DNA of 64,000 nucleotides from Candidatus Poribacteria bacterium (lineage in GTDB: Bacteria; Poribacteria; WGA-4E; JAJDTR01), in assembly GCA_965222225.1 (NCBI GenBank), contig CBDCTK010000002.1:1824001-1888000 (forward strand), read 5' to 3'. The translations under genes were made by a program, and so were the position numbers. This document shows, in pieces, positions 3,158 to 55,536 of this stretch (within the stretch, counting starts at the first letter, position 1; every line of letters begins with the position of its first letter). The notes beneath the pieces were generated by a model, which saw nothing but the letters and a program-made list of their open reading frames with translations, made no database searches and was not told the origin of the DNA.

Positions 3158-3263
3158 AAGATCTCTATGGGAACTCTATCGCAGTCACTATGGGATCTAC
3201 TATCGCCTCGGAATCTCTATCGCACTCGCTAATCGCTCGCTTGATCTATCCGCTCAGTTGATC
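3158..3263 (+). repeat. Nested cluster of the 38-nt micro-element (3 left fragments, 1 complete unit at 3210-3246, 1 right fragment)
   Basis: AAGATCTCTAT|GGGAACTCTATCGCAGTCACTAT|GGGATCTACTATCGCCTC|GGAATCTCTATCGCACTCGCTAATCGCTCGCTTGATC|TATCCGCTCAGTTGATC, lying inside a GCGACC...CGCTCCCTACA REP-like sequence. Confidence 0.85.
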
Positions 3264-3627
3264 GCTCCCTACAAGAAATGGTGCATGGATCCCATCTTGA
3301 TTTGATGAACGAAGATCCTTACACCTTTAGAATCAGGTGCGATGGGCCTGCCGCATATTCTCCTCTGTATTGTACTTTTGTACAAAGCCGAGATAAGAAA
3401 AGATGCAGAAACTGAGTTTTTTATGATGAATCCACACGAGTTGGCGAAAACGGGACCGATTTGCTCATGGTCCATCAAACGGACACCAAAAACTCGGTTT
3501 CTCTGGAATAAGGAGCAACTTGCGTTAAAATATTGAACGTACAGTAGATTCTTCACCGCGCACCCACTGTCGGATTAAAGAATATCTAACCAATCAACTA
3601 CGACATCAGGCCCAATTGGAGCGATTT

Positions 3628-4308
3628 ATGGAACGTTTAGACATTCTTCACCCGTTGATTGACGAATACCTACTCGATGTTATTCCCGCACGCGATGAGG
3701 TGCTAACGGAGATGGAAGCACACGCACGGGAACACCGTTTTCCAATTGTTGGTCCGCTCGTTGGTCGCGTGTTGCATCAATTGGTGTTGCTGACTAACCC
3801 GACGCGAATTTTCGAGATGGGATCAGGTTTTGGTTATTCGGCGTATTGGATGGCGAAGGCATTGCGACAACCGGGAGCAGGCATCATCTGTACCGACGGC
3901 TCGCAGGAAAACGCTGACCGTGCGGCGAATTATCTTGCGCGCGGTGGTATCACGAATCGCATTGATTATCATGTCGGAAACGCGCTCGAAATCATCGACA
4001 AAACTGAAGGTGGCTTTGACATCATCTACAACGACATCGACAAAGATGGGTACCCCGAAGCGTTTCGCAAAGCGATTCCACGGCTCAGGAGTGGCGGGCT
4101 GTTTATTACGGACAACATGCTGTGGATGGGGCGTGTCGTTACGCACGATACCGAGGTTCGCTCGCCAGGGTGTGATGAACAGGATCAATGGCTGCACAAA
4201 ACCACGGTCGGAATCAAGGAATTGACGCGGCTGCTTTACAGTTCACCTGATGTGTTCACGACGATTATTCCGCTTCGCGATGGGGTTTCGGTCGCAGTGA
4301 AACGCTAA
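3628..4308 (+). CDS. O-methyltransferase (Methyltransf_3 / CCoAOMT-like)
   Basis: IFEMGSGFGYS, FDIIYNDIDKDGY, LRSGGLFITDN and PLRDGV motifs. Confidence 0.92.
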   Translation: MERLDILHPLIDEYLLDVIPARDEVLTEMEAHAREHRFPIVGPLVGRVLHQLVLLTNPTRIFEMGSGFGYSAYWMAKALRQPGAGIICTDGSQENADRAANYLARGGITNRIDYHVGNALEIIDKTEGGFDIIYNDIDKDGYPEAFRKAIPRLRSGGLFITDNMLWMGRVVTHDTEVRSPGCDEQDQWLHKTTVGIKELTRLLYSSPDVFTTIIPLRDGVSVAVKR

Positions 4309-4420
4309 CGCACCAGTCGTGTTTAGTAGCTCTGAGATTTTGGGAAATGCAGAAACCATTGGAGAACAATTGATAAAGTCACTTATCGGTAAACATTCAA
4401 ACAAGCGAGGTAACGTGGCT

Positions 4421-4493
4421 ATGGAAGAAAAATACGAATACAAAGTCATTTCAGCGAAGTCTGGTAAGAGTCAAGAGTGGGCAACTCTGAATG
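4421..4493 (+). pseudogene. 5' stub of a small gene (MEEKYEYKV..., DUF4177-like) truncated by the ISAs1 element
   Basis: GAGG RBS, ATG at 4421, YEYKV motif; the reading frame runs into the IS inverted repeat at 4494. Confidence 0.4.
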
Positions 4494-4602
4494 CAGGGGA
4501 AACGCATCTGATTTTTCAGAATAGAGTTGCCAGAGTAGTGGTCAAGTAATTGTTATCCCATGCGGCTTTGAGCCGTTTGTTGGCGACACCAAGTTTAGTT
4601 GA

Positions 4603-5763
4603 CTATTCAGACTTGAGTAGATTGAGAGCAATGCGTCGAACAATGGCAAAGTTCTCACCGCTGTTATCTTTACGAATTCGAGACGCATCCTCGCGGAAAG
4701 CAACATCCAATACCCAATGACATGAGTTTTCAATCCGCCAGTGATGCCTGGTGGCTTCAAGCAACTTTGCCGCATCCCCGGGAAGCGAAGAAATGTAGTA
4801 GCGTGTCTCGCTGGCTACCTTTTGGTCGGCTTCTCGCTGAGCGGTGGCTTTGACGACTAAGTTGAGATTGGTGAGATTCTCAGGAATCTCTATCGCACTC
4901 GCTATGGGAACTCTATCAGGATCTTCTATCGGCTTCGCTATTTGCTCCGTTGAACCTCTGAGGGCGGAAATCACGCCGGAGTCTGCAATCGCATAAAGGA
5001 GTCTCTATCGCAGGATTTGCTATCGCGCGCGCTATTCGCTTGCTTGATCCCCTTGTTCAGTCGCTTGATCGGTGCGGGTTTCAATACGTCCATGATTGCC
5101 GTCAATTGTTTGGTTCAAGTCGACTTCAACATCTCTTAACTCGCTAGTTGAGACGCCATCAAACAGAAGTTGAACATCTTCATACAGCTGTCCTCGATTG
5201 GCTTTAAGCGCGAAAACGTAATCGGCATCTGAATCCACAACGGTTTGAGCGATGTCGGTTTGACAACCCATCGCATCAATAGTAACAATGCACCCTGACA
5301 CTTCTAAAACCTCTAACAACTCGGGAGTTGCTGGAATCTCATTGGATTTGTCGGCAACTTTAATTTGCCCAAATGCCACGCCCATGCACTAACTAGGTGA
5401 ATGGCAGCTCTGTTGTTATGAGTATCATAGGAAGGACGCAGTTGCTTTCCATCAACCGCAATCACTTGGCCTTGGGTGACTTTAATGGCGCTACGAATCC
5501 AGTTGATGAAACACTCCTCGAATTTCGTAGAATCTATCGCACCAAACACACGCCTGAATGTATCATGCGATGGGATGCCTTTTGGTAATTCCAAGAACTC
5601 AGCTAGCTACTTATACTTGGCACCTCCGAATGCTTCAACTGCCACCCAACTATCAGCGCCGCAAATAACGGCGCAGATAGCAATGACAACTCTATCAAGC
5701 AATTTATGGGGTGTGCGACAATCAACTCGTCTGGGGTCTGGCAATGAGCCAAAATGGGATTGT
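4603..5763 (-). pseudogene. ISAs1 (H-repeat) transposase, fragmented
   Basis: Motifs LPDPR, GIPSHDTF, IAVDGK, KSNEIPA, IVTIDAMGCQ, HGRIETR, HWRIEN.HWVLDVAFRED split over several frames, with a stop, a frameshift and two micro-element insertions. Confidence 0.93.
4883..5070 (+). repeat. Two nested clusters of the 38-nt micro-element (4883-4956 and 4978-5070) inside the ISAs1 transposase
   Basis: Repeated GGAATCTCTATCGCA and TCGCTTGATC(C) fragments. The 21 nt between the clusters read as transposase remnant (GVISALR) on the minus strand. Confidence 0.85.
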
Positions 5764-6126
5764 TAATCTCTAATCAACGATTAGCTTTACTCTGATATTG
5801 AGGAAATCGGGGGATTAGACATGTGTTCTGCTCCTTAGAAGATTTCATACAAGCATATCCCAAGTACCTCCCATGTCAAGCCCAAAATTTAGATGCGTTT
5901 CCCCTGGGAAGACTGGAAGGGTGGAAGTTTGGAAGAATGGGAAAGTGGGACACAGATAAATACGGATTCAAACACAGGAGTAGTAAAGAAGGAAGATTGG
6001 AAGGATAGTAGCAAAACGGTGGCTAATGGTCAATAGTTAGAAAAAAAGGCGCCATGCAAAGCTACACGAGTGTCTCCGACAGGGCGCCCTTCTGAATCCT
6101 CGGCTAAATGCTATTGTTTTCTTGGT

Positions 6127-6366
6127 TCAGACAGTTGCCTTCGGTGCCGCCTCCAACTCCGCAATGGCGCGGTTGACCTCGGCTTTAAGATCTAACGGCT
6201 GATTAGTGCTCAATTGTACCTTCAGATTCGACAGGGCAGCTTTCGCAGCTTCTAGGCGAGAAAGAGCGCTTTCACGTTGGTATCCTTTGAGCGCGTTAAT
6301 GACAATCCGCCGCCGATCCGAAGAACTGCTTGAAACTGCCTCTTGATATTTACGGAAGTGACACAT
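6127..6366 (-). CDS. Small hypothetical helical protein (79 aa)
   Basis: Strong GAGGAGG RBS upstream of the ATG; Ala/Leu-rich amphipathic sequence. Confidence 0.55.
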   Translation of the reverse strand: MCHFRKYQEAVSSSSSDRRRIVINALKGYQRESALSRLEAAKAALSNLKVQLSTNQPLDLKAEVNRAIAELEAAPKATV

Positions 6367-6641
6367 CGTTTATTTTCCTCCTCAATGTCCTGAATTTGTT
6401 GAGGAAATGGCGCATGAATTATGCCATTCTTTCTTACCGTATCTCAATCAGCCCCATTATCTTTCGTAGCGCCCTTAGAATGAAGAAAAAATTCAATTGA
6501 CCTCTCGTAGGCCCAGTATCAGTAATATTGAAGGTCCGTAAGTGTTTAGTCTATTGATTTCTAGCGCGAATGTAGGGAACCGTTTATGATCTTAGGGGGC
6601 TATGGCTCAAAAATGTTCGCATTATTATTGTAAAGGCAATC

Positions 6642-6992
6642 CTAGGTTCTGTTGACATTTATGTTAGGCGTGTGCGTAATTCGAGGGAGGCACCCAGCGG
6701 GTTGGGAGACCAAACCCTTACGGATTCCGGTGCATGTCTAACCGGGCCTAGGTCCCTTCGCCCATCCCTCCAACGGGTTAAGTTGTGTGCACAAGTCAAA
6801 AGAACGTGCAAAGCACAACGCGAACCCGTAGGGGCGGGGATCAAATGAGCGAATAGCGAATGCGATAGGGATCTTATTGCCCCGCCCTGACTTAACACTA
6901 ACTCGGTTGCTTTGCCCGATTTAATTATATGAGCGAACGTATTTATGCCTCCCTCGATCATCTGGTGACGATGAAATGTCAACAGAACCTAG
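6642..6992. mobile_element. MITE-like non-autonomous element containing REP-like hairpins
   Basis: Perfect 19-bp inverted repeats, CTAGGTTCTGTTGACATTT (6642-6660) and AAATGTCAACAGAACCTAG (6974-6992). No transposase inside. Confidence 0.75.
6838..6875 (-). repeat. Single 38-nt micro-element in the loop of a REP hairpin
   Basis: Reverse complement AAGATCCCTATCGCATTCGCTATTCGCTCATTTGATCC, between the arms GTAGGGGCGG and CCCCGCCC. Confidence 0.85.
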
Positions 6993-7252
6993 TGCTATTA
7001 GGCTCTGTCTTCAGGTTCGTAGTAGTGCAATCCTCCCCGACAAGGTTTACTATTACCCACATCGGGACAAGGGTGGATCAGGCTGATTCGGCGATAACGT
7101 AAACCTATAGTACTTAGCACCGATTTACCATTTATCGTAGATATGCGCATGCAAGATTCCATCTGGGAGAAGAGGGAAAATCGGCGATATGATGGTCGAG
7201 AATTCTACTCTGAGGCATACGTGCGTGGGAATCGGCGTTCTTACACACCTTG

Positions 7253-7331
7253 AAGATCTCTGTGGGAAGTTCTATCGAGATCGCCTTCGCTATGTGCTCA
7301 GTTGATCCCTCGCTATTAACTCGGTTGATCC
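7253..7331 (+). repeat. Nested cluster of the 38-nt micro-element
   Basis: AAGATCTCTGT|GGGAAGTTCTATCG|AGATCGCCTTCGCTATGTGCTCAGTTGATCC|CTCGCTATTAACTCGGTTGATCC. It interrupts CTTACAC(A)CCTT...TAGAATC(A/T)GGTGCGAT, which is intact at about 3318-3350. Confidence 0.8.
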
Positions 7332-7366
7332 TCTAGAATCTGGTGCGATTGCCCTGTGAAACGTGC

Positions 7367-8011
7367 TTATGCAATGCTACGAGTCTCTGATTTTTCGCGC
7401 GACTCACATCGCAAATAAGGACACAATTGGTGCTGCAGTTTCTTCCGTGCAAAGAACAGATGCGCTTTAATTGTGCCGACTTGCCGATTCAGCTTCCGCG
7501 CAATTGTTTTCAGCGCAAGTCCCTCGCGATAGTGCAGAACAAAGATCTCGTACTGCATCGGCGATAGTTGCTCTATCGCTTGATGTATTTGCTTCAACAG
7601 TTCTTCGTTTAGGACCATCTTTGACGGTGGTTCTGAGTTGGCATCGGTGAGGTTTGTTGTGATCGAGTCGTCAAACTCCCACATCTCAACGACAATCGGG
7701 CGCATCGTATTTCGGCGCTTGAAATCAATGCAAAGATTAACCGCGATCCGATAGAGCCATGTATAAAACTGAGATGCCTTCCTGAAATTGAACAGCCCTT
7801 GATAGGCCTTCAGAAACACATCTTGGGTGAGATCGAGTGCGTCTTCGTGGTTGTGGACGTTGCGATATACCAATCCATAAATGGATTTCTGGTAGCGAAT
7901 CATCAATTCGTTGAAGACTGACGTCTCCCCGCGTTGAAATCGCTTGACGAGTTGGGTATCATCCGTGGTTGCTTGAGCATATAATGGAAACACCTTTTTA
8001 TCTGAAAGCAT
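7367..8011 (-). CDS. ECF RNA polymerase sigma-70 factor
   Basis: Region 2 DALDLTQDVFLKAY...FYTWLYRIAVN; region 4 HTH IARKLNRQVGTIKAHLFFARKKL. Start at 8011 or 8032. Confidence 0.93.
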   Translation of the reverse strand: MLSDKKVFPLYAQATTDDTQLVKRFQRGETSVFNELMIRYQKSIYGLVYRNVHNHEDALDLTQDVFLKAYQGLFNFRKASQFYTWLYRIAVNLCIDFKRRNTMRPIVVEMWEFDDSITTNLTDANSEPPSKMVLNEELLKQIHQAIEQLSPMQYEIFVLHYREGLALKTIARKLNRQVGTIKAHLFFARKKLQHQLCPYLRCESREKSETRSIA

Positions 8012-8172
8012 TTCGGTTTTCCTTTCGATCATGCCGATAGCGTTAGATAATCTTCCGGTTTTCGTGTTTGACGGTACTATACCCTGAAAGTGGCTGTTGG
8101 TTGGCTCTGCTGTCCTAATTGCTTACCTATAATTGAGCTCAGCAAAGTATTATGTGCGAGTGTCAGGTGCGC

Positions 8173-8984
8173 TTACTTGTCCCTGTCTTCCACTTCCTCT
8201 TTGTCCTTCGCTTCTTCTTTGTCGGTTTCTTTCGCATTGTCCTCCCACTTTGCTTCGCCTTGCTCCTGTCTCTGGTTTCCTTGCGTTTTGCGATATTGCT
8301 TCCGCATCCGTTTGCGTTCTTCAGGAGAAGCGTCTTGAAACGGGTTCTTTATTCCCTTAAATTCCGTTGCTTGCCATCACGATTTTCTGTATTCTGATTC
8401 GATCGATTTTCACGGTTCAAAGAGCGATCCCCGCGGTCTTCCCCACCTGCCCCGCTGAGAAATGGGTTCGCCTCGGCGCGAATTGTCATTATATCCCCTG
8501 CCCTATTGAGTGTAACTTGGTTTGATTCAATGTCTTTGACGATCGCGTCTCCTATTTTTTCGCCCACACCTACATAGTAGAATTGTCTCGATCTCCGGTC
8601 CATCATGTACGCCCTTGCCTTGTTCCCTTCTGATTCGATCAGCGTTGCCATGAGTGTATACTGTAGCTCACGATCCGGTCTCTGCCAGCCAATTGGCCGG
8701 AAGAGGTTATTCTCAACAACCACACGGTAGAAATCTTCATCACCCTTCAGTTCCTTACGCTGATAGGCAGCAAGATTCTTGCTGCGTGCAGAGCCATCCT
8801 TACCTGTATTTTGCTTCTCACGATTTGCTCGTTTCGGGTCAGGCTCCTGATAGGCAAACCTCTCTCTGGAATTGTTTGTAATGTCGCCCTGAGCATTAAG
8901 GTTCTTGTATTGGCTGATTAACAACGTCAGCATCGCAACACCGCAGATCCCGATAACCGCGATGATTCTGAATCGAGTTTCCAT
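8173..8984 (-). pseudogene. Membrane-anchored GspC/PilP-like HR-domain protein with charged tail, frameshifted near 8350-8380
   Basis: N-terminal TM segment; NNLFRP...YTLMATL...VGVGEKIGDAIVKDIESNQVTL resembles the T2SS protein C HR domain. After the frameshift the sequence continues NPFQDASPEERKRMRKQY...DK, stop 8173-8175. Confidence 0.65.
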
Positions 8985-9422
8985 TTCATTTCTCCGCAAT
9001 GGTTGGTTTGGCACTAGCGGAAGGTCATGTGACTTCACACGAAATCCCCAAGCAATACACGCGGCGCATTGGCGGCAGTGTTATCGCAAAGTTTCTACCG
9101 CAAGGGTTACCGCTCAGTGTTAGTGGGATACCGCCTAAGCGCTGCCAAATAGAAGGCGTGCACAATGTCAATTGGCGATTCTCAGCCGCAAGCAGCGAAT
9201 CGATCCAAGTTGCGGATACACCGATAGGTTCATTGAATAGGAACCGCGGAACAATACGGTTTCTGGCCCATGCGCCAATCAGTGCTGGTCCGCTCTCAGG
9301 CGCCCCTTGGTGACCGCAACGCCCCAAGATGTCGAGCACGTTGCGCTGCTCGGTTCGGCCCCGTGGATGTCCGCCAGCACCTCCGGTTCAAACTCCCGTA
9401 CTAGGGCGTGCGAGTATTGCTG

Positions 9423-11333
9423 TCACTTGCGGCGTTCGTCGTCCGATCTCGAATCCGGAAACTTCCTGCGATACTGTTCACCTGCCTCTTCGCGGGTCAT
9501 CTCGCCGCTCTCGACCTTTTTTCTCAGTTCATCAATGTAGGTCTGCTGCTCCGAGGTGCGATTGCGGCGTCCGCGCATGTCTCGGCGCTCACCACGTGCT
9601 TTCGATCCGCTGTCGAGCCACTTCGACATCGTTTCATACTCGACACCCATGACATCAGCCATCGCGCCAAGGACATGCGGATCAAGGTAAAGCATGGGTT
9701 GTTGAAAGGCAAAATTGTGTATGACCTTACCACCCTTTGCGACAAGAATCATCATCGCCGCGTTGCGATTCAGGCCGTAGCTGCCAGGGCCTTCGCCACC
9801 ATCTGGCGAGATACCCAGCAAAACCTCCTTTGGAACATGCGCTTCAAATTCCTTAATCCATTTAGACAACGTCCCTGGATCGTTGTCCAAAAACACGACA
9901 CTTGTGCGAATTTCTTTCTCAGATTTGTTAGCGATGTCAAGCAGGGCACGTGAAGTGCCAATCAGCCCGCGCACGCCCACCCCGTTGTCGTCTTGCACGA
10001 ACAGGACAAGGGGTTTTCCATCTGCCTCTGCGATGACATCGAATTCCTTATCAGCGAATTTACCCCTGATGCCAGTCGCCTTCAATGGCGGAAGGTGATC
10101 GCCCGGTTGCGGGCCAGAGAACAGTGGACTTTCTTCGGACTTGTTGAAACCGGTCGGGTCTTTGACTTTGACCCGACGGCCGTTTTCGTATTCCTTTTTT
10201 GCCATCGTCTGGCCCTGCTCTGTCTGCTCGCTACGCCTCTTATCACTCATATCAACCTCTTCTTCTGATGTCTTGGCTGTTTGAGAGAACAGCGAGAGTT
10301 GGACGCTTCGGAGCGGGACCAACTGTGCCATTGCCAGCAAAGGCAGGCTAGTGAATAATAAGGTTGTCGCCAGCCATAGCAAGCGTGGATTCGGTTGCAG
10401 ATCTAGCCGTCGATTGTCTTTCAGGATGGAGCCGATTCGGGACTCCAATTGCGATGGTTGATTCAGTGCCAAAGCCAGAGATATGTCTTCGTCTTTGTGG
10501 CGAACCAGGTCCAGCAAGCACTGGGCATAGTTCTTTCGCGCACCTGTCAACCGGATGACCCAGTCGTCACAAATCTGCTCTCGTAGGTCCACCAACCGAC
10601 GGTTGAGGAGATGGTAAAATGGATGGAAGAAGAAGATGGCTCCAACCAAGTGCGAAAAGAGATTGGTCAACCAATCCAGTCTTTGAACATGGGCTAGTTC
10701 ATGGACTGCCACCAGTTCAAACTGCTCAAGACTAAGTGTCTGCGGAATTAGTATGCGAGGGGACCGCCAGCCAAAAGATATAGGTGACACGACCTGATTG
10801 GAGAAGTAGACGGTGACCGAAAAATTGATTTTCATCTGTTCAGCCGCTCGCCTGCACACCGTCTGATACGAACCATCAGCGACCGTGGCAGCTCGCCGCA
10901 TGTGACCGATGCGGTGCAAGCCAAACAATAGACGCGCCAGCATGGTCAGCACACCGATAGCCCACGCACATAGCAGCCCATCAAGTAAGCCCCAGTTAGC
11001 AGGGAAAATCCGATCTGTAAGTATGTGATTTACCGATAGTGCTTGGTTTCCGACGGCTGGAAGGTCTAACAGGTCCGCAGTCTGGAGGATTAGGGACGTG
11101 ATAGCTACTGGCTGGGCTTGCGTTAATTCTGACTGAGCGGCTTTGATGGAGATACCCGGCACAAGCTGATTTAAGCCAAACAGGATTGGCAGGCTGATTA
11201 AGGACAACAGCCAGAGCAGATGGAAAGTGGTGTTAGAGCGGCGTAAACGACTGGTCACCAACCAAGTAAGGCCACTCAGTAGCCCCCACTGCCAAGAGCA
11301 ATTGAACAATGAAATCAGGATTTGCCTACTCAT
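9423..11333 (-). CDS. BlaR1/MecR1-like M56 metallopeptidase with C-terminal thioredoxin-like extracytoplasmic domain
   Basis: HELAHVQRLD zinc motif, REQICDDWV, LESRI, TM helices; C-terminal FSGPQPGD..P...KPLVLFV domain without CxxC. Confidence 0.9.
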   Translation of the reverse strand: MSRQILISLFNCSWQWGLLSGLTWLVTSRLRRSNTTFHLLWLLSLISLPILFGLNQLVPGISIKAAQSELTQAQPVAITSLILQTADLLDLPAVGNQALSVNHILTDRIFPANWGLLDGLLCAWAIGVLTMLARLLFGLHRIGHMRRAATVADGSYQTVCRRAAEQMKINFSVTVYFSNQVVSPISFGWRSPRILIPQTLSLEQFELVAVHELAHVQRLDWLTNLFSHLVGAIFFFHPFYHLLNRRLVDLREQICDDWVIRLTGARKNYAQCLLDLVRHKDEDISLALALNQPSQLESRIGSILKDNRRLDLQPNPRLLWLATTLLFTSLPLLAMAQLVPLRSVQLSLFSQTAKTSEEEVDMSDKRRSEQTEQGQTMAKKEYENGRRVKVKDPTGFNKSEESPLFSGPQPGDHLPPLKATGIRGKFADKEFDVIAEADGKPLVLFVQDDNGVGVRGLIGTSRALLDIANKSEKEIRTSVVFLDNDPGTLSKWIKEFEAHVPKEVLLGISPDGGEGPGSYGLNRNAAMMILVAKGGKVIHNFAFQQPMLYLDPHVLGAMADVMGVEYETMSKWLDSGSKARGERRDMRGRRNRTSEQQTYIDELRKKVESGEMTREEAGEQYRRKFPDSRSDDERRK

Positions 11334-11712
11334 CAGTTTCACTCCCTTCTGGCCGGTAGTTGTTAATCAGTTGTTGTAAGCGGTCATGTTCAGCGGTACC
11401 TGTTTGTCTCACTTCAAGTAAAGCGTTAACCAATTTCTCGGCAGAATTGTCAAACAGGTGTTCCAGCAAATCACTGAGCATGGAATGGGTAATCTCCGCC
11501 TCCTTGACCAAGGGTTCGTAGAGGAAAGTCCGACCAATGACCTGATGTGCCAAAAAGCCTTTCTTTTCCAAGCTTTTCATGGTCGTGGCAATGGTGGTAT
11601 AGGCCAGCTTGCGGTCAATGTTGTCCAGCACATCGTTAACAGTCGCCTGTCGCAGTTTCCAGACAACTTTCATCACGTCAAGCTCTAAATAGTGTAATTT
11701 CTTGGCTTTCAT
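11326..11712 (-). CDS. BlaI/MecI/CopY family transcriptional repressor
   Basis: ELDVMKVVW, LAYTTIATTMKSLEKKGFL, FLYEP motifs; overlaps the start of the M56 gene. Confidence 0.95.
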   Translation of the reverse strand: MKAKKLHYLELDVMKVVWKLRQATVNDVLDNIDRKLAYTTIATTMKSLEKKGFLAHQVIGRTFLYEPLVKEAEITHSMLSDLLEHLFDNSAEKLVNALLEVRQTGTAEHDRLQQLINNYRPEGSETDE

Positions 11713-11806
11713 CTGATTCTCTCCTTATCCAAAAGGTTTAGGGTGAATGCCTCTGCTGCTGACAGGTCAGATAAGATGTTAACTCGCATGTTAAAAGTAA
11801 AAATCC

Positions 11807-12445: not shown

Positions 12446-12490
12446 CTATCACGAATAGGCTCATTCCACAAGCGTCATGTCAGATAAGGA

Positions 12491-47203: not shown

Positions 47204-47433
47204 TGATTCGCCCCCGTTCTTAACATGAAAAGTCAGGTGAAGCGCCTCTCACGTTTGGAATGTGTTTTGATTCTTCGGTTATTCCCGTCAATCCGTGAAA
47301 CGACATTCTAACACATTCGCGAAAATCATTCAAAGCCTGAAATCTCACATTCACGTATTTCTTTTGATTCACGCTCTCAACCTGTGATACAATGCCATTG
47401 ATTCAAACCGAGAAAGGAGTGAAAAATTTTAAC

Positions 47434-48276
47434 ATGCTTCTTGGAGCCCATGTATCTACCGCTGGTGGTTTATATAAATCAATTGAAAACGGAGAAAAAT
47501 TGGAATGTGAGGCAATACAAATTTTCGTGAAGAACCCCAACCGCTGGGTCGGCAAAGAGCCAACCGAAGACGACACCAATCGGTTCAAAGCGTCCTGGCA
47601 AGCGTCCGCAATCCAATCCGTCCTCATCCACGACATCCATCTCACCAACCTCACTTCTCCCAAACCTGATGTGCTTGAGAGTTCTCGAGAACAGGTTCGC
47701 TCACAGTTGCAACTGGCAGATGTCCTTGGAATTCCCTATTTCGTAACCCACATGGGCGCGCATCTTAACGCCGGTGAAGATGAAGGCTTGAGGTTGTTGA
47801 GCGAGAGTCTCAACCTACTCTTCGAGCAGACAGCGGACGGCGAGGTGATGGTGCTGCTAGAGACTACTGCCGGACAAGGATCGAATCTGGGTTACACCTT
47901 TGAGCATCTACGCCAGACTATCGACAGTTCGAAATGTCCGGAAAGGCTCGGCGTCTGCCTTGATACCTGCCATGTCTTCGTCGCAGGCTACGATATCCGA
48001 ACCGAGGAAATGTATCACGAGACCTTCGATGAATTCGATCGGGTAATTGGTCTTGACCGGCTACGTGCGTTTCACCTCAACGATGCAAAAGCGAAATATT
48101 GCAGTCGTGTTGACCGCCATGAACACATCGGCGAAGGGAATCTCGGCGAGCTTCCTTTCAAACTGCTTCTGAACGATGCACGGTTTGCGGATGTCCCGAT
48201 GGTCATTGAGACGCCAAAGATGGAAGAGATGCACGCGACGAACCTCGCCGTGTTGAGGAACCTAATCGCGACGTGA
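47434..48276 (+). CDS. nfo: Endonuclease IV
   Basis: GAHVSTAGG, LETTAGQG, CLDTCH, HLND, DRHEHIG, IETP motifs. Confidence 0.95.
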   Translation: MLLGAHVSTAGGLYKSIENGEKLECEAIQIFVKNPNRWVGKEPTEDDTNRFKASWQASAIQSVLIHDIHLTNLTSPKPDVLESSREQVRSQLQLADVLGIPYFVTHMGAHLNAGEDEGLRLLSESLNLLFEQTADGEVMVLLETTAGQGSNLGYTFEHLRQTIDSSKCPERLGVCLDTCHVFVAGYDIRTEEMYHETFDEFDRVIGLDRLRAFHLNDAKAKYCSRVDRHEHIGEGNLGELPFKLLLNDARFADVPMVIETPKMEEMHATNLAVLRNLIAT

Positions 48277-48582
48277 GATTGTGCGGGGTGGTAGATTCTT
48301 AGGATGGTCGTAGGCGGGGAGGATTTTTCGCACCAACCGGGTGAGTTTTGAACACAACTCAAAGACTACATTGACATCCGGTAATCCGCTGATGAATGTC
48401 TAGCAGCGGCTTCCTTTTCTTCGGTATTAGGACTTCCGCAGTTCGGTTTGTGCTAACGATTCTCGTTTTGAAGTTTGCAGATCTTAATACGAACCCGTAG
48501 GTGTTGAACTGCGTAAGTCCTAATTTTGGTTTAGATAAGGGGCACGGCTCTAGGTTTATTGTCCAAGCTTTCAGGCTATCCA

Positions 48583-50091
48583 ATGTTTCTGATACTATTC
48601 CGCCGAGAATTGCTCGCAAATCTGATGACACTTCGATTTTTTGTCGCTGTCGTCACCTGCCTGATACTAGTCATTGCCAGTACCATCGCACTTCTTCAAG
48701 ATTACAAACACCGCCTAGCTGTCTACAACACCGCCGTGAAAACACATCGCGAGGATGTGACCGATGCCAAGACCTATTCGCAACTGCGGCTGTATGTGGA
48801 TCGCCCCCCGAACCCGCTCAGCATCTTTAACCAAGGGCTTGACAAACGACTTGGCAATACCGTCCATGTTCATCACCAATTTGTGCCTACTCTACTGGAC
48901 GCTCAACAACATGGTGTGGACAACCCCTTCCTCAATCTCTTCTCCGGCATGGATTTGGTTTTTATCTTCCAAGTTGTCCTGAGCCTAATGGCATTACTGT
49001 TCGCTTACGATGCGATCGCTGGCGAACGCGAAGCGCATACGCTTCGTTTAATGGCGACCAATCCGGTGCCTCGAAGTCTCATTCTTCTGGCGAAGTATGC
49101 GAGTGCGATGGTATGTCTCGTCTTATCGTTGACAATCAGTATCCTCATGGCGCTGTTTCTGTTAACGACTTCGGGATCAGTTGCCTTCTCAGGCGAGGAC
49201 TTTCTTCGGATACTTGGAATTCTGCTGACATCCATGATTTACCTCTCCACGTTTTATCTGATTGGACTGCTCATTTCGACTGTTTCGCGCCGTACCGCGA
49301 CAGCTTTGGTGTTCGTCATGTTTGTGTGGGTTATGCTAGTGCTGGTTTATCCAAGTCTATCTGTTGCAACCCTCGATCGATTAATAAGCACCGAGGAAAA
49401 GCTAAAAACAGCTCTGTCCGAGATAGAACAGTTCTGGGATCGGTATGATGCTGATGAGAGAGCTTCGGTCAAAAAGAACTCCGTACGTGCTTATAGCTAT
49501 CCTGCGCGCATTGGTCACGGCGACCATCTCAAATATTCCGGGGGTTACAACAATCAAACCCTGCTTCATCATAGATTTTGGTGGACATATGATTATGAAA
49601 AAATTGACGAAGATAAAGAAGAGTTGGTCCCGAATGTGAAATCCCATTGTCAGTTCATGGAATCATCCCGAATTCGCGCCGCGGAAAAGACATGGCTGGT
49701 TCGAAGAAAAGCGCTCGATCAGACCTACGGCCGCAAAGCGAATGCTGTGCAAATGGCGATCCGTTTTTCGCCGGCGGCAACTTATGATTTGGCAACAGAG
49801 GCTTTAGCAGGCACAAATCTCCAAGGGATTGAGCGTTTCGCGGAGTCGAGCCGGCAGTATCGGCGCACTCTGATTGAATATCTGCGGGAAAAGAAAGCCT
49901 TTTCCTCCAGGCAATGGTTTTCTCATGACAAAGGCAGCGTACGTTGGGACGACTTACCGCAGTTTTCCTATCAGCGGGCAGATTTGGGGAGTGATATTAT
50001 TGATGTTGTTCCAGATCTGATTCTGTTGCTGTTGATTAACTTGGTGATATTTTTGGCAGTCTTTTTGTCCTTCCGCAGACAGGACTTATAG
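48583..50091 (+). CDS. ABC-2 type transporter permease subunit
   Basis: AYDAIAGERE..TLRL...PVPR...LAKY motif; six TM pattern. Confidence 0.88.
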   Translation: MFLILFRRELLANLMTLRFFVAVVTCLILVIASTIALLQDYKHRLAVYNTAVKTHREDVTDAKTYSQLRLYVDRPPNPLSIFNQGLDKRLGNTVHVHHQFVPTLLDAQQHGVDNPFLNLFSGMDLVFIFQVVLSLMALLFAYDAIAGEREAHTLRLMATNPVPRSLILLAKYASAMVCLVLSLTISILMALFLLTTSGSVAFSGEDFLRILGILLTSMIYLSTFYLIGLLISTVSRRTATALVFVMFVWVMLVLVYPSLSVATLDRLISTEEKLKTALSEIEQFWDRYDADERASVKKNSVRAYSYPARIGHGDHLKYSGGYNNQTLLHHRFWWTYDYEKIDEDKEELVPNVKSHCQFMESSRIRAAEKTWLVRRKALDQTYGRKANAVQMAIRFSPAATYDLATEALAGTNLQGIERFAESSRQYRRTLIEYLREKKAFSSRQWFSHDKGSVRWDDLPQFSYQRADLGSDIIDVVPDLILLLLINLVIFLAVFLSFRRQDL

Positions 50092-50185
50092 GATCAAGCG
50101 AGTGAATAGCGAGCGAACAACCGACCGGATAGGGAGGACGATAGACAATCCCGTGCGATAGAGTTCCTACTGCGATAAAGATTCC
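50091..50185 (-). repeat. Nested cluster of the 38-nt micro-element between the two permease genes
   Basis: Reverse complement GGAATCTTTATCGCAGTA|GGAACTCTATCGCAC|GGGATTGTCTATCGTCCTCCCTATCCGGTCGGTTGTTC|GCTCGCTATTCACTCGCTTGATCC. Confidence 0.85.
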
Positions 50186-50238
50186 ATTACGCAAGAGGAC
50201 ATGCAATCTCCAACGAATCCCACATTGGTGAGTATTCT

Positions 50239-51678
50239 ATGATTTTTGGCATAGCGAAACGCGAACTTTACGACAACATGATGAGCCTCCGATTCGCGCT
50301 GATTGTGCTGATGATGCTCACAGTAATGGTTGCCAATGCCGTTGTCTCCCTCGGCAAATACAGTGAGCAAATCGGCGATTACCATAGAAATATAGCCGAT
50401 GAACTCAAGGAGATGGAGCTCCACGCAGAGAGTCTTCCCGATTTGGTCTTGTATGGGCCCGGTGAACTCCATAAGCAGCCTTCCGCACTTTCGTTTTGTG
50501 CGAATGGCGGAGAAGCCTTTCTTTCCAATAATGCCGATGGCAGGCCATTGGAACGGTGGTGGGGAAGCTACCCAGTCCGATTCAACGGCATCTGGCGGAT
50601 GACTTATCCTCAAAGCAATCCAAGCCTGTGGGATCTCCTGCCGGATTCTACTCAGATGGATTGGGCATTTCTGATTGGAGTTGTGTTGAGTTTCGCCGCG
50701 ATTCTGTTTACTTTCGACGCCATCTCCGGAGAACGCGCGCGCGGGACGCTACGCTTAATGCTCGCCAATAGTGTTCCACGCCACGTGGTGTTGGGCGGCA
50801 AATTTCTTGGGGCGCTGATAAGCATTGGTCTTCCATTTCTCATGGCAGTGTTGGTCAACCTCTTTCTACTTTATACCTCTGTCAGCATCCAGTTAGGAAC
50901 AAGCGACTGGGCGCGGTTGGGAGTAATCGTTCTGATTGGTTTCGTCTACATAGCCATCTTTATCACACTGGGGCTGCTGATTTCCTCCCGCGCCCGGCAA
51001 TCGTCATCAAGTTTGATGGTTCTCACTTTAATCTGGGTTGTCTGGGTGATTTTGATACCAAACACCGTCGGGTTGGTTGTCAGAAGTCTTAAGCCGGCAA
51101 TGACTAGTGACGAATTTCGCCAACGACGGGAGGAACTGTATCAGCAGGTGACACAAAAATATCTGGATCGGGGGCTGCTTGATGCTGATTTTACCCCGCG
51201 TGAGATTCCGCCTGCAAAGGTCACCTTGTTGTGGGGCGAGTATCACCTAGAAGAATCCCTCGGTGACGAAAGATTGCTTGAGGCACATTTGAGAGCGCAA
51301 ATAGATCAGGTTGTGTTTGCGAGATCGTTGGCACGCGTATCACCCGCAGCTGTCGTCCAGTATGCCATCGAATCCTTGGCGGGAACGGGCTTCTCACGAC
51401 ACCTACAGTTTCTTTCCCAGGTCAAGATTTATGTGTCCGAGTTTCGAGACTTCCTCGTCGAAGTCGACAAAGCGGACGCGGAAAGTCCCCATGCGCTCTT
51501 TTTTCCATATGCGATTTCGTGGAAGCCTGTGCCTATTGACGCCATCCCGAAATTCAAGGACCGCTACAGCTTCGGCGAATCGCTAAATGATGCTACTGTG
51601 GATACGTTGCTGTTGGTACTGGTCTTTGTGGTGTTATCCGTCGCATTATTTCTTTCTTTCCTTCGGGTTGATGTTTAG
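50239..51678 (+). CDS. ABC-2 type transporter permease subunit (paralogue)
   Basis: FTFDAISGERARGTLRLMLANSVPR...GKF motif. Confidence 0.88.
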   Translation: MIFGIAKRELYDNMMSLRFALIVLMMLTVMVANAVVSLGKYSEQIGDYHRNIADELKEMELHAESLPDLVLYGPGELHKQPSALSFCANGGEAFLSNNADGRPLERWWGSYPVRFNGIWRMTYPQSNPSLWDLLPDSTQMDWAFLIGVVLSFAAILFTFDAISGERARGTLRLMLANSVPRHVVLGGKFLGALISIGLPFLMAVLVNLFLLYTSVSIQLGTSDWARLGVIVLIGFVYIAIFITLGLLISSRARQSSSSLMVLTLIWVVWVILIPNTVGLVVRSLKPAMTSDEFRQRREELYQQVTQKYLDRGLLDADFTPREIPPAKVTLLWGEYHLEESLGDERLLEAHLRAQIDQVVFARSLARVSPAAVVQYAIESLAGTGFSRHLQFLSQVKIYVSEFRDFLVEVDKADAESPHALFFPYAISWKPVPIDAIPKFKDRYSFGESLNDATVDTLLLVLVFVVLSVALFLSFLRVDV

Positions 51679-51925
51679 AGCTTGTTTGAGAACGTTGTTT
51701 GCCAACCTTGGGAACTTTCATACTTTTCATACCTTTCATACCCCAATGGAAGTTTTCAATAGAGACAAAAAAAGGGTTATAACCCTTGCTATGACTGGGT
51801 TCTTCGAAGTTTCGACATTAAAACCATCCAAGAGGAGGTATGAAACTGTAGTTGTCACTCGGAACAGATTGAAATCTCAGATTGACACGATTTTCATAGG
51901 AGAAGATGGCTTTTCAAGCAGGCTC
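51678..51925. mobile_element. IS5-like MITE (about 248 bp) flanked by TA
   Basis: Imperfect inverted repeats GAGCTTGTTTGAGAA and TTTTCAAGCAGGCTC, with TA on both sides; inserted at the permease stop codon. Confidence 0.6.
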
Positions 51926-52149
51926 TAAACTTGACCGGATTGGTCAGGTTTTCCACCTTAAATCTCCTTCATTTCTGTCAAAGGATGGGAGTACGTTCAG
52001 ACTAATTTTCTGGTATTCTTGGGTAGGTCAATTTATAATAGATAGCATAGGCTTGTATCCAATATATTATTGACGAGTTTATCCATTTAGATTTTGCTTG
52101 CGCAGTCGTAACTCCAGCTTATTCCAATTTCTGTTACTTAAGGAAGATA

Positions 52150-52776
52150 ATGCAGAACGATTTACGCTACCGAACGATACTACTTTTTGGCCCTCCGGGA
52201 GCTGGAAAAGGCACACAGGGAAAAATTCTCGGATCGATACCCGGTTTCCTTCACGTTGCCTCCGGCGATGTTTTTCGATCGCTCGATCCTACCTCTGAAT
52301 TGGGAAAAATCTTTGCTGACTATTCGTCACGCGGTGCGCTCGTACCCGACGACCTGACGGTTAAGATGTGGGAGGAGCATATGCAAAATCTGACCGAAGA
52401 AGGGACATACAGGCCGGATAGTGCATTATTGATTCTTGATGGCATTCCGCGGAATCTAAACCAAGCACGGCTAATGGATGAACACATTCAGGTTCTCAGC
52501 CTTATCCATTTGGGATGTGAAGACGAGGATGCGATGGTTGACAGGCTAAGTCGGCGGGCGCTTAAAGAGAATCGCGCCGATGATGCCCGCGAAAAGGTCA
52601 TACGACATCGCTTGAAGGTGTATGAACAGGAGACGCAACCTGTAATCGACTACTATTCCGCATCGCTCGTAAACGTGGTTGATGCGCTTGGCACGCCTGC
52701 CGAAGTCCTTCAACACGTTCTCAAGCTGGTTGCTCCGATGCAGCGCTGCTGCTTTCCTGACGGCGTTGAGACGTAG
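52150..52776 (+). CDS. adk: Adenylate kinase family (short, LID-less type)
   Basis: GPPGAGKGTQ, GALVPD, ILDGIPRNLNQA, RADD motifs. Confidence 0.85.
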   Translation: MQNDLRYRTILLFGPPGAGKGTQGKILGSIPGFLHVASGDVFRSLDPTSELGKIFADYSSRGALVPDDLTVKMWEEHMQNLTEEGTYRPDSALLILDGIPRNLNQARLMDEHIQVLSLIHLGCEDEDAMVDRLSRRALKENRADDAREKVIRHRLKVYEQETQPVIDYYSASLVNVVDALGTPAEVLQHVLKLVAPMQRCCFPDGVET

Positions 52777-53010
52777 GCTATGAACCGGACGCTGTGGGGA
52801 ATAACGAAGGATTTCTACAAGAAATCGCGACCGGGAGATCGCTCCTACGAGGACCTACACCCGTGGAGATCACACACAGGTGCTAAGATAATTAGGGGTG
52901 ATGGCGATGCTACACTCCTGTCGCGCCGCGGTTATGAAATCGGCTGGCGGTAGTTTATTGGTTGTCATTGATTAAATTCAGAGGCAGAATAGGTATTCAT
53001 GAGGTGTAGA

Positions 53011-53769
53011 ATGGGTTTGGAAGATAAGGTTTGTATCGTTACGGGAGGTGGAAGCGGCATCGGCCGTGGCGCGGCTCTGCTGATGGCGCATAACGGGGCC
53101 AAAATTGCGCTCGCAGGGCGGACCGTCTCAAAGGTTGAAGTGGTAAGAGACGAGATTGAAGCCGCTGGCGGCTCGGCGCTGGCATTTGGGTTGGATGTCG
53201 CAGATTACGAGGCTGCTCAACAGATGGCAAAAGACGTATTCGCAGCCTTTGGCAGAATTGACGTGCTGGTGAACAACGCCGGACACAGCTCTAAAAACCG
53301 CCGTCTCCTGAACATGACGCCGGAAGAGATTCGTCAAGTCGTTGATTCCAATCTGATTGGTACAATCTTCTGTACTCAAGCGGTAGTACCCTTTATGTTG
53401 GAAGCTAAGAGCGGAACAATTATCAACGTGTCGTCAGTTGCCGCGATACAGCCGGGACCTTTTAGCGGACCGGCGTACGGCGCAGCGAAGGCAGGGGTGA
53501 ATAATTTCACACAGTTTCTCAATGCCGATTTGGTGAATACGGGAGTAAGAGCGAGCGTGATCATGCCGGGAGAGATTGATACACCCATTCTCGATCTGCG
53601 TCCAGTCCCTCCAACGGCTGAAGCCCGTGCAACAATGGCGGATATTGAGGATACTTCGGAACTCATTAACCTCATTGCGAGCCTTCCACAAAGAGCCAAC
53701 ATACCAGAAGTAATAATCAGACCGACAATGCAACGAGACGTTTCGAAGGAAATTCAGTCTGGACCATAA
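53011..53769 (+). CDS. SDR family oxidoreductase
   Basis: TGGGSGIG, NNAG, YGAAK motifs. Confidence 0.93.
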   Translation: MGLEDKVCIVTGGGSGIGRGAALLMAHNGAKIALAGRTVSKVEVVRDEIEAAGGSALAFGLDVADYEAAQQMAKDVFAAFGRIDVLVNNAGHSSKNRRLLNMTPEEIRQVVDSNLIGTIFCTQAVVPFMLEAKSGTIINVSSVAAIQPGPFSGPAYGAAKAGVNNFTQFLNADLVNTGVRASVIMPGEIDTPILDLRPVPPTAEARATMADIEDTSELINLIASLPQRANIPEVIIRPTMQRDVSKEIQSGP

Positions 53770-53907
53770 ATTGGCAATCCGTCCTCTCAGGGTGTGCCGA
53801 ACCAAAGATTCACCTAAGCGTATATGTAGAAGCGATGGGCGGTCGGAGTGAATCCCAAAATTGTGACATTTGAATGTACTTCATTATACCTATTTTAGGG
53901 GACTGAC

Positions 53908-55140
53908 ATGCATGCAGAAATAGTTATGATCGGCAGCGAGCTTCTGCTAGGAGAGCTTGTTGACACGAACGCCAACAAATTGGCAATAGCCCTTCGAAAC
54001 ATCGGGCTAGACTTATACTACAAAACCACCGTTGGTGACAACGAGGGGCGCATTACCGATGTCTTAAACCTTGCTCTGGACCGCTCGGATGTGGTTATCA
54101 CCTCCGGCGGAATTGGACCGACCGTCGACGATGTAACACGCCAAGCTGCGGCAAATGCCACAGGGCGCCGGTTGGTCTACAGCAATGCACTGGAAGTGGA
54201 GATTGCGGAGCGTTTTCGTGGGTTTGGACGAAAAATGGCGGAAAACAACCGACGTCAAGCCTATTTGCCGGAAGGCGCGTTGCCGCTCACGAATCCTGTC
54301 GGTACCGCTCCCTGTTTCTTGAGCGAGGATGTGGGCGGAAGAGGTTGCGTCATCTCGCTGCCCGGTGTGCCGCGGGAACTTTTGCACATGCTGGAAAATA
54401 CGGTAATCCCCCTGTTAGTGGAACGGATTGGTGGAATCAAGGTGACTAGAATCCGAGTTTTGCGCACCTGTGCAGTGGGTGAAAGCAACATTGATCGGGG
54501 AATCGGCGATCTCATGACTGGAGGCAATCCTACCGTCGGGTTGGCGGCACATTCGGGCCAGACCGATGTGCGAATCGCAGCCAAAGCAGACACTGAGGAA
54601 GAGGCGGACGCGCTGATCGATGGGATGGAAACTGAACTTCGGAAACGTTTGGGTATCGCTATTTACGGCGTGGGCAAAGAAACGGTGGCCGACGTAGTAG
54701 GCAGTCTATTAGCCAAATGCTCCCTAAAACTCGGCATAGCAGATACGCTTACAGATGGCCAGGTTGCCAGGGATTTGACTGAGGCAGGTTACGGGGAATT
54801 GATTGCCACGGATTCTTGGTCAAGGGATTTGACCGAAGTATTAAAGTCCGCCGGTCTGCCTGCCAATCCGGCGAAAACGGACAAGCGATCATTAGCAGAC
54901 TCCCTTGCTAAAAGCGTGAGACCATCTGATGCTGATGGAGTCGGTCTGGTGATGCTGGGTCCCTTTGAAGACAACTCGACCTGTGTCTTCCTGCATGGTC
55001 CAGGCGATATGTGTTTATTCAAAAATGGCCGCCATTATCAAGCCACAGCCCATGTTAACCGATGGTTGGTCATCCAAGGGTTGGACTGGATTCGCCGTGC
55101 AGTGCTGGGGACGTTGGAATCGCCGGTGGACTGGAATTAA
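53908..55140 (+). CDS. cinA: CinA family protein with degenerate PncC domain
   Basis: IGSELLLG..VDTN, GGIGPTVDDVT, NPVGTAP, LPGVPRE motifs. Confidence 0.9.
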   Translation: MHAEIVMIGSELLLGELVDTNANKLAIALRNIGLDLYYKTTVGDNEGRITDVLNLALDRSDVVITSGGIGPTVDDVTRQAAANATGRRLVYSNALEVEIAERFRGFGRKMAENNRRQAYLPEGALPLTNPVGTAPCFLSEDVGGRGCVISLPGVPRELLHMLENTVIPLLVERIGGIKVTRIRVLRTCAVGESNIDRGIGDLMTGGNPTVGLAAHSGQTDVRIAAKADTEEEADALIDGMETELRKRLGIAIYGVGKETVADVVGSLLAKCSLKLGIADTLTDGQVARDLTEAGYGELIATDSWSRDLTEVLKSAGLPANPAKTDKRSLADSLAKSVRPSDADGVGLVMLGPFEDNSTCVFLHGPGDMCLFKNGRHYQATAHVNRWLVIQGLDWIRRAVLGTLESPVDWN

Positions 55141-55358
55141 CCACCCTTGCGTATCAGGACGGACAAATCCATCGGTAGCAGGTGAGCACTAACGTTACGA
55201 CTTCTAGTCGGTCGAGCCAGAGGCAAACCGGAAGCTTGTCCTGACCAGAGTTTAAGGAAACCGAAGACCAAGATAAAGAAATTCGTGCTGTCTCGCCCTC
55301 ACTTCTACTTTTATTCTGTTTGGACTTACACAGCAACAGGAGGTCGCTACGGTAAGCA

Positions 55359-55396
55359 GGATCAACCGAGCGGATAGTGAGGGCGATAGAGATCTT
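55359..55396 (-). repeat. Single 38-nt micro-element in a REP hairpin loop
   Basis: Reverse complement AAGATCTCTATCGCCCTCACTATCCGCTCGGTTGATCC, between GGTAAGCA and TGCCCTACC. Confidence 0.85.
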
Positions 55397-55433
55397 CTTG
55401 CCCTACCGCGCATCGGCGGTCGCGACCGGAGGC

Positions 55434-55536
55434 GATCTCTATGGGAACTCTATCGCAGCAGGCTCTCTATCGCACTCCTTATTCAGTCGCTTGATCTATT
55501 CGTTCCCTCGATCACTCGCTATCCACTCGTTTGTTC
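55434..55536 (+). repeat. Triple-nested cluster of the 38-nt micro-element
   Basis: GATCTCTAT|GGGAACTCTATCGCAGCA|GGCTCTCTATCGCACTCCTTATTCAGTCGCTTGATC|TATTCGTTCCCTCGATC|ACTCGCTATCCACTCGTTTGTTC, inside CGCGACCGGAGG...GCTCCTACA. Confidence 0.85.

Follow-up and report, generated by a model that had tools for sequence, protein, structure and literature searches.

What is the short, variable unit that recurs at eight loci in one stretch of the genome of a Candidatus Poribacteria sponge symbiont, and how does it come to lie there? The stretch, called the window below, comprises 64,000 nucleotides (nt), positions 1,824,001 to 1,888,000 of contig CBDCTK010000002.1, and belongs to a genome of 5.70 Mb in two contigs with 50% G+C and 94.9% completeness, which the nearest homologues of one of its proteins place in Candidatus Poribacteria. 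A first-pass annotation of the window had described a hypervariable 38-nt element, and all eight loci that it listed do hold units, with slightly revised boundaries. These units probably form a family of 37-nt non-coding mobile DNAs, single-strand mobile hairpins resembling repetitive extragenic palindromic (REP) sequences and the small dispersed repeats (SDRs) of cyanobacteria, and would be mobilised in trans. Other hairpins and copies of the unit itself receive it in one orientation, with 2-4 bases replaced and no duplication left, and at 37 bases it ranks with the smallest mobile DNAs on record.

A strict 30-nt search pattern (CTATCGC NN TC NN TRTYC NN TC NN TTGATC) matched 561 times in this genome, whereas the same pattern read backwards, used as the control, matched neither here nor in 40 related genomes (nine of the same genus, the others from further genera including those labelled g2, g3, g4 and g6). 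Contigs from four sequencing runs of four studies, the only form in which the runs were used, cover the window from 2900 to 7500, and a single 857-nt contig spans 4660-5516 and bridges both arrays there. The contrast of 561 matches with none, together with contigs that cross arrays, excludes adapter or assembly artefacts. The earlier argument for real insertions is further borne out by the presence of the element in 14 of the 40 other genomes and by empty sites at orthologous and paralogous positions. Genome-wide, 664-665 copies were recovered, and the 665 comprise 544 distinct 37-mers, 476 of them unique. The claim that no two complete copies are identical holds for the three strict full copies in the window, which all differ from one another, and fails beyond it, where identical 37-mers stand at unrelated sites (for example, nine of ten pairs in one five-copy group); copying can thus be faithful. 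By crude gene calls (open reading frames, ORFs, of at least 100 amino acids, picked greedily), 560 of 664 copies lie outside ORFs, though 82% of the contig was called coding.

Alignment of 630 full copies gave the consensus RRRAWYT-CTATCGC-[VBTCVB]-TATYC-[VBTCVB]-TTGATC, in which two 6-nt arms form an inverted repeat around a 5-nt loop. Variation is confined to eight positions that change in compensating pairs, while the other 29 are nearly invariant, so the eight "hypervariable" letters are compensating stem positions, not copying errors. In the 627 copies for which both arms were left free to vary, Watson-Crick matches stand at the four variable pairs in 460, 585, 590 and 535 copies, with three Watson-Crick types in use per pair and two at the loop-closing pair. 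The 259 distinct arm and loop combinations among them average 3.19 Watson-Crick pairs of four, against 1.54 +/- 0.06 (maximum 1.71) in 1000 shuffles and merely 0.26-0.72 when the register was slid. This compensating variation disfavours uncorrelated copying errors, and with them the earlier proposal that one fixed template had been copied in an error-prone manner. The internal CTAT(C/T)GC(A)CTCG "doublet" of that proposal is in fact the two hairpin arms, which covary as an inverted rather than a direct repeat.

The mismatches that do occur are lopsided, with A.C in 140, 17, 19 and 77 copies at the four pairs versus G.T in only 5, 6, 6 and 7. An excess of A.C over G.T at every pair indicates that pairing, wobble included, is kept on the complementary strand, 5'-GATCAA-VB-GA-VY-GRAYA-RB-GA-VB-GCGATAG, which is therefore the strand that folds. 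Between the variable pairs, arm positions 3-4 are fixed as T (612-622 of 627 copies) and C (586-616 of 627), combining across the arms as T.C in 577 and C.T in 611 copies. On the GATCAA strand these invariant TC/TC letters become a tandem G.A/A.G, so that the hairpin consists of two 2-bp helices with a fixed tandem mismatch between them and a loop of five letters, GRAYA. On either side of it lie fixed flanks, in which ATC and GAT can form further pairs. Around the GA of this strand an A never precedes and a T never follows, an exclusion that removes the A-T closing pair. Thermodynamic work has found an A-T closing pair to be the least favourable neighbour of tandem G.A. When the GATCAA strand was folded with RNA parameters, the exact covarying hairpin and the outer ATC/GAT helix were recovered in two of the three window copies, and this strand was more stable than its complement in all three.

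The same covariation discloses how arrays arise. Most copies are single or lie in nested direct arrays, and 34 of 665 are followed directly by an inverted copy (right flank GATAG). Within an array, 5' halves stack leftward and 3' halves stack rightward. Across 52 arrays of the 5'-5'-3'-3' layout, pairing is complete between the inner halves in 47 and between the outer ones in 38, whereas crossed pairings are full in merely nine and eight, and shuffled partners gave 31%. Since inner and outer halves pair with each other and crossed halves rarely do, a unit was inserted inside an older unit, and the arrays are nested self-insertions. Where both flanks of the older unit could be read, it had lost CGC in 24 cases (CTAT before the insert, N1 after it), TC or TC plus two further letters after N1N2 in 23 cases, and YC after the loop TAT in nine.

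Single copies were also found within several unrelated repeat families, of which four REP families of the GTAG type have many empty members for comparison. Their empty members read GGGGCAAG-ATGC-CCCGC-CTAC (17 copies), GGTGCGCAG-TGC-GCACC-CTAC (70 copies), GGTGGGCAG-TGC-CCACC-CTAC (86 copies) and GGTCGGGCTAGAA-GC-CCGAC-CTAC (6 copies), and in filled members the unit takes the exact place of the middle letters, ATGC, TGC, TGC and GC, respectively. Five nucleotides are always left before CTAC, with host arms of 7-9 nt, and the ends of the unit are precise to the base in all four families, beginning 7 nt before CTATCGC and finishing at TTGATC. Genome-wide, TTGATC stands 5 nt from CTAC in 73 copies and 4 nt from it in 31. 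Orientation within hosts is likewise fixed, as CTAC lies at most 13 nt downstream in 155 of 664 copies versus eight of 664 in the mirror arrangement. The replaced bases number two to four, as the first-pass annotation had broadly anticipated, and always end in C or TC. No target duplication was found at the four REP families, at the miniature inverted-repeat transposable element (MITE) sites or at the orthologous pair described below. A fixed target tetranucleotide was not found either, and the left flanks of units end in many different letters.

Other hosts extend this picture. The REP that belongs to an IS200-like Y1 transposase gene is one of them, and a MITE present in 46 copies holds zero to four units at three sites, the first of which is empty in three copies. 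In an array of CRISPR repeats at C2:2,705,400-2,708,000 (L086 4500-6960), 1.4 kb from cas1 (L086 1926-3113), many of the 37-nt repeats (GTAGCAACCATTGCCSCGAYGAAAAGSGGACTGAAAG) are interrupted by the unit. The same array contains, at least four times, a 240-nt composite of two inverted units around a 110-nt core, each bracketed by a 12-nt CCCGAYGAAAAG derived from the CRISPR repeat. As a separate observation, the MITE-like repeat is about 250-400 nt long, occupies its 46 places in contig C2 (for example, 137,780-138,000) with the ends TAAGAGCCTGTTTGAA / TTCAAACAGGCTCTTA, and contains three REPs, two of the Y1 type and one of the GTAG type, all of them hot spots for the unit.

The orientation of units on the chromosome was compared with that of genes and with GC skew. 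It is independent of the direction of flanking genes (89 versus 119 and 72 versus 90 between co-directional genes) and depends on the sign of the GC skew within +/-50 kb (195/111 versus 101/257, odds ratio 4.5, p = 4e-20), a bias that persists whichever way the flanking genes point. In two families, empty REPs are biased likewise (38/16 versus 16/56, odds ratio 8.3), and so are units outside REPs. Since orientation is biased by GC skew and not by gene direction, the underlying process appears linked to replication and single-stranded DNA and not to an RNA function. Separately, the skew flips sign many times along the 5.6-Mb contig C2, for which rearrangements, joins made in assembly or an unusual pattern of replication could be responsible, and the orientation of the repeats follows these local switches.

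Turnover is also visible between genomes. The first-pass annotation had called for a genome-wide count and for orthologous empty sites, and both were obtained. Strict copies number 329-859 in all nine same-genus genomes, 114-137 in all four g4 genomes, which belong to a different family, two in the g2 genome (another genus of the same family) and none in the 26 remaining genomes, seven of which are from the sister genus of g4. In what follows, carriers are the present genome, G001-G009, G012, G015, G021 and G027, set against the 26 element-free relatives. This patchy pattern, with the element in the same genus and in g4 and missing from the sister genus of the latter, suggests transfer between lineages. 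At finer scale, the site downstream of an orthologous Y1 gene is bare at locus L007 and filled in the near-twin species at L008. Between two ABC-2 genes (window 50091-50187), G004 has no array, and arrays of differing content occupy this spacer in the window genome, G005, G001 and G002. G005, the closest relative, is without a 266-nt segment (55397-55662) that holds the 55434-55540 array here, its flanks being 98-99% identical, and retains the neighbouring solitary unit (55360-55396) with identical stem letters.

Self-insertion of the unit into its own stem and loop builds the nested arrays. These observations are consistent with a unit whose mobile or recognised form is single-stranded DNA at the replication fork. 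A structure-specific nuclease or ligase would act on it in trans, most plausibly one of the resident Y1 enzymes of the HUH class that serve the host REPs, that is, REP-associated tyrosine transposases (RAYTs). A motif, TCTAT, precedes the hairpin both in the unit and in the REP belonging to the Y1 gene. It is this motif, a strand bias in common with the REPs and the constant distance of 5 nt to their tag that make REP-bound RAYTs the most plausible helpers.

Several results weigh against this proposal, and the search for an enzyme supplied most of them. No enzyme was identified, as neither the three Y1 types nor the sole reverse transcriptase (RT) of the genome tracks the element. The Pfam Y1_Tnp profile found five places in the genome. 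One 157-amino-acid type (for example, at C2:3,294,690) scored 65.8 with the NCBIfam IS200 model (cut-off 55) and 30.6 with that for RayT (cut-off 80), and its best solved relative is ISDra2 TnpA (E about 1e-5). Inverted 37-nt units flank it, and no other nuclease-like gene, as judged by the first 60 residues, occurs among the 16 genes that have inverted copies at most 250 nt away. Its orthologues, compared at 38 loci in Poribacteria, Acidobacteriota and Bacteroidota (from L006-L060), carry a different flanking hairpin repeat, CTATACACCTNTCGCCCCGCTGGGGCTT and variants, read by eye in 30 of the 38, and the 37-nt units here are merely nested in that repeat. The type also occurs in seven of seven g6 and five of ten g3 genomes that are free of the element and is absent (at E<=1e-20) from two of the four g4 carriers. 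The protein carries Y---Q--HH, the motif of subclass 1.2 of Quentin et al. 2018 (PMC6006769), a subclass of IS200-like Y1 genes described in that paper as generally without terminal structures. A side observation from the same comparison is that the gene is flanked by one to three inverted small hairpin repeats (..TCTATACACCTNTCGCCCCGCTGGGGCTT) in a REPtron-like layout.

The remaining candidates fared no better. A RAYT-like gene of 247 amino acids has no unit within 2.5 kb and true orthologues only in G005 and, in part, G009. A truncated RAYT gene at C2:3.56 Mb is flanked by inverted units, but its full-length relatives contain a GTAG REP of their own and have it at their flanks as well, and equally close homologues occur in element-free g6 genomes. 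For two further Y1 remnants, the L003 and L004 types, the assessment covered the flanks only, where each has GTAG REPs of its own. The sole RT is an AbiA-type protein of 670 amino acids (254.8 bits; C2:4,499,563-4,501,572, L118 5561-7573) whose gene adjoins that of a type I restriction R subunit. It was found in five of nine same-genus genomes, one of four g4 carriers and one of seven element-free g6 genomes. Neither a primase-polymerase of the Prim-Pol family (PF09250) nor TnpB had a match in this 94.9% complete genome. Thus the RT, primase-polymerase and HUH genes that the first-pass annotation wished to see beside the element gave no candidate that follows it. Two side observations concern these genes: full-length relatives of the RT, which is found in seven other genomes, have in-frame stops in four of seven cases, and the full-length RAYT genes at L096 and L097 (G006 and G003) hold a GTAG REP inside the reading frame, an arrangement reported for subclass 2.4 in PMC6006769.

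The chemistry and folding of the unit raise further objections. The unit has no GT[AG]G tag of its own, and its junctions match neither the C|T rule of Escherichia coli TnpA-REP nor any known Y1 outcome: the rule fits the loop CT on the GTAG strand in three REP families only, fails in the families labelled F4 and F5 and in the Y1 REP, and never fits at the other junction. Y1 cut-and-paste is not known to exchange 2-4 bases of its target. The better-folding strand is found mostly on the C-rich side, which, if skew is read in the usual way, does not serve as the lagging-strand template. IS608 and ISDra2 use the lagging-strand template, the opposite of this assignment. Fold energies are also unhelpful, since the RNA z-scores of the GATCAA strand (-0.42 to -0.08) are no better than shuffles, those of the complement being worse (0.17 to 1.96), and DNA-parameter folds are weak (-0.2 to -1.6 kcal/mol) and worse than most shuffles. 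Finally, the crudeness of the gene calls weakens the counts of gene context.

The mismatch with known chemistry leaves room for a more radical reading, which we regard as possible but doubtful, namely that the unit is a new kind of minimal mobile DNA, a single 37-nt hairpin that homes into the stems and loops of other single-stranded hairpins. The replacement of 2-4 bases without duplication matches neither Y1 HUH cut-and-paste, DDE transposition nor Cas1 integration, and such homing could be carried out by REP-bound RAYTs hijacked in a non-canonical half-reaction or by an enzyme class not yet linked to transposition.

An explanation that needs no dedicated enzyme is template switching or short-patch gene conversion at stalled hairpins, in which a nascent end would jump to another copy and back through 1-2 nt of microhomology. 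In its favour, above all, the bases lost from the target always finish in C or TC, with which the unit (..GATC) itself finishes, just what a microhomology junction should leave, and such switching would also account for targets that are hairpins of unrelated sequence, for an orientation that follows the replication strand and for the failure of any mobiliser gene to fit the distribution of the element. We nevertheless judge it unlikely: the ends are base-precise in four REP families, the orientation to the host tag is fixed (155 versus 8 of 664), and the insertion site stays 5 nt from CTAC despite arms that vary from 7 to 9 nt. The 26 related genomes that have REPs and hairpins yet hold no copy would fit the lack of a seed as well as the lack of an enzyme.

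It is quite improbable that the units are kept as structured RNA in transcripts, as terminators, stabilisers or small RNAs, with mobility a secondary matter. Wobble of the G.U type is indeed tolerated on one strand only, RNA parameters do recover the covarying hairpin on that GATCAA strand, and metatranscriptome contigs from two studies run over arrays, although contigs from RNA libraries are not in themselves evidence of transcription. Against such a role, orientation is unrelated to flanking genes and tracks GC skew, copies sit within CRISPR repeats, insertion sequence (IS) genes, MITEs and each other, and fold energies do not exceed those of shuffles. No Rfam family matched the window at the gathering threshold, and a search at E<=5 over 3000-7500 gave chance-level matches only. 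The strong conservation of 29 positions, the replication-strand bias and the intergenic position of 560 of 664 copies would equally suit domesticated protein-binding sites (for nucleoid proteins, gyrase or polymerase, as in some bacterial interspersed mosaic elements, BIMEs) or replication signals of benefit to the host. A copy number that ranges from 0 to 859 among related genomes, presence, absence and turnover at orthologous sites, the destruction of an IS gene and of CRISPR repeats, and nesting within themselves make this very improbable. The first-pass idea of filler copied with errors from one fixed template into breaks, by an RT, RNA-templated or primase-polymerase route, drew on the small size, the lack of target duplication and the few replaced bases and is hardly credible even in a genome with one RT gene, because variation is limited to eight compensating positions, the sites are specific hairpins entered in fixed orientation, no Prim-Pol was matched and the AbiA-like RT, placed beside a restriction gene, has the patchy distribution given above.

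Among known systems, the SDRs and the REP/RAYT systems come closest to the trans-mobilised hairpin that we favour. Elhai et al. 2008 are said to have described SDR4-6 of Nostoc punctiforme and its relatives as units of 21-27 nt whose hairpins are reportedly kept by compensating changes and which insert into other repeats and into each other. We know of no protein encoded by SDRs and of no mobiliser for them. The 37-nt unit is alike in being a dispersed hairpin of less than 40 nt with compensating changes, insertion into repeats and itself, and no encoded protein. It differs in its larger size, its phylum (Poribacteria, the SDRs being from Nostocaceae), the fixed tandem mismatch in its stem and its targets, which include GTAG REPs and CRISPR repeats. 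Nostoc SDRs are mentioned briefly in PMC5861425, PMC3116915 and PMC2884548, the first of which reports the short palindrome HIP1 as an insertion site of SDR5.

With REPs, BIMEs and REP doublets forming hairpins (REPINs), which are served by RAYTs (TnpA-REP, Y1 HUH) and have a conserved motif at the hairpin foot according to PMC3116915, PMC3479197, PMC6006769 and PMC3733652, the unit shares its hundreds of short, mostly intergenic hairpins, its clusters and inverted pairs, stem changes that keep pairing with G.T pairs included, and a conserved motif at the hairpin foot. It also shares the replication-strand bias of the GTAG REPs of this genome. Unlike a REP, it is without GT[AG]G, which occurs only in its host REPs, and has instead the invariant flank CTATCGC / GCGATAG; it has no cognate single-copy gene that it flanks in its own right, and it inserts into REPs, nests within itself and replaces 2-4 target bases.

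The unit resembles the IS200/IS605 family (IS608, ISDra2) and its non-autonomous derivatives in hairpins recognised by structure, the lack of target duplication and coupling to the replication strand, and its end, TTGAT-C, contains TTGAT, the target of ISDra2. Unlike that family, it has one 23-nt hairpin in place of separate left and right ends, is not preceded on the 5' side by a constant tetra- or pentanucleotide, costs the target some bases and is not accompanied by TnpB. The lack of target-site duplication at REPs, MITE sites and the orthologous pair separates it from MITEs of the DDE type. Off-target integration by Cas1-Cas2 is set apart in that typical sites are replaced and not duplicated, the CCCGAYGAAAAG-bracketed CRISPR composite being the exception. 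IS1397, which inserts specifically into REP palindromic units (cited in PMC3116915), has insertion into palindromic units in common with the 37-nt unit and is itself a full-length IS with a transposase and target duplications.

To our knowledge, how DNA units too small to encode or bind a transposase pair can move has been an open question since the cyanobacterial SDRs. The present family is good material for it, with hundreds of copies in each of 14 genomes from two genera, and its useful features (paired empty and filled sites, a hairpin with a tandem mismatch, a strand bias and an insertion point defined relative to the GTAG tag) translate directly into oligonucleotides that can be offered to Y1 nucleases as substrates. 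In addition, the family is a case of selfish hairpins that erode a CRISPR array and IS genes, and its presence accounts for the breaks that short-read assemblies of these sponge symbionts have at such sites. Among the literature matches listed on Poribacteria, judged by title and the start of the abstract, no paper dealt with such DNA repeat families. The covariation statistics, the assignment of the folded strand, the tandem G.A core, the nesting test, the 5-nt tag offset, the GC-skew bias, the phyletic map, the invasion of CRISPR and the negative tests of the RT and three Y1 types are new here.

In the window itself, the first array (3160-3271, + strand) comprises about four nested units around an innermost complete unit at 3210-3246, with a stack of three 5' half-units on the left and of 3' half-units on the right. 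Among these, the third 5' half and the first 3' half are paired through their CT and AG, respectively, and the surrounding host is REP-like (..GCGACCTGTAAA / array / GCTCCCTAC). The next two arrays lie in a broken DDE transposase gene of an IS, whose fragments (DDE_Tnp_1 / DDE_Tnp_1_assoc, 4603-5594, - strand) form ORFs 5313-5594, 5032-5385 and 4603-4974. The array at 4883-4955 (+) contains three partial or degenerate units and corresponds to a 114-nt block missing from a paralogous IS copy near C2:970,500, while that at 4998-5070 (+), at the break point of the gene, consists of one 5' half, one full unit and an extra 3' half and is also present in the paralogous copy. The Pfam DDE_Tnp_1 match is divided at these arrays, with profile positions 54-138 in ORF 5032-5385 and 139-200 in ORF 4603-4974, and a split at exactly 4883-5070 indicates that one gene, that of a mobile element, was interrupted. 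The earlier statement that no intact gene is interrupted thus needs this exception and otherwise agrees with the genome-wide preference for positions outside ORFs.

Both solitary copies of the window measure 37 nt, the 38 nt given earlier being reached if one flanking base is counted. The first (6839-6875, -) sits within a GTAG-type REP hairpin (host about 6828-6892, arranged as GTAGGGGCGGG + unit + CTTATTGCCCCGCCC), and the genome has this exact 37-mer three times. In two runs, contigs pass straight from 6839 to 6877 and so skip 37 nt, a weak hint, since the shorter side measures only 30-33 nt. The second (55360-55396, -) lies downstream of a cinA-like gene, near the array at 55434-55540 (+), which has a full unit at 55460-55496, two 5' parts and two or three 3' halves and lies inside a GTAG REP host (GGTCGCGACCGGAGGC / array / GCTCCTAC). 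The array in the ABC-2 spacer (50091-50187, -) lies directly past the stop codon of the permease gene and precedes the second ABC-2 gene. At 7252-7331 (+) a degenerate array holds two 5' parts, a diverged full unit and an extra 3' half, and a 7-nt indel variant at 7279 appears in contigs of two of the four runs.

One further feature was noted beside these loci. Contig depth reaches the thousands at window positions 6596-6749 and 6904-7057 in all four runs, and a perfect 19-nt inverted repeat (6642-6660 / 6974-6992) surrounds an ORF at 6659-6982; the region 6596-7057 looks like another high-copy repeat.

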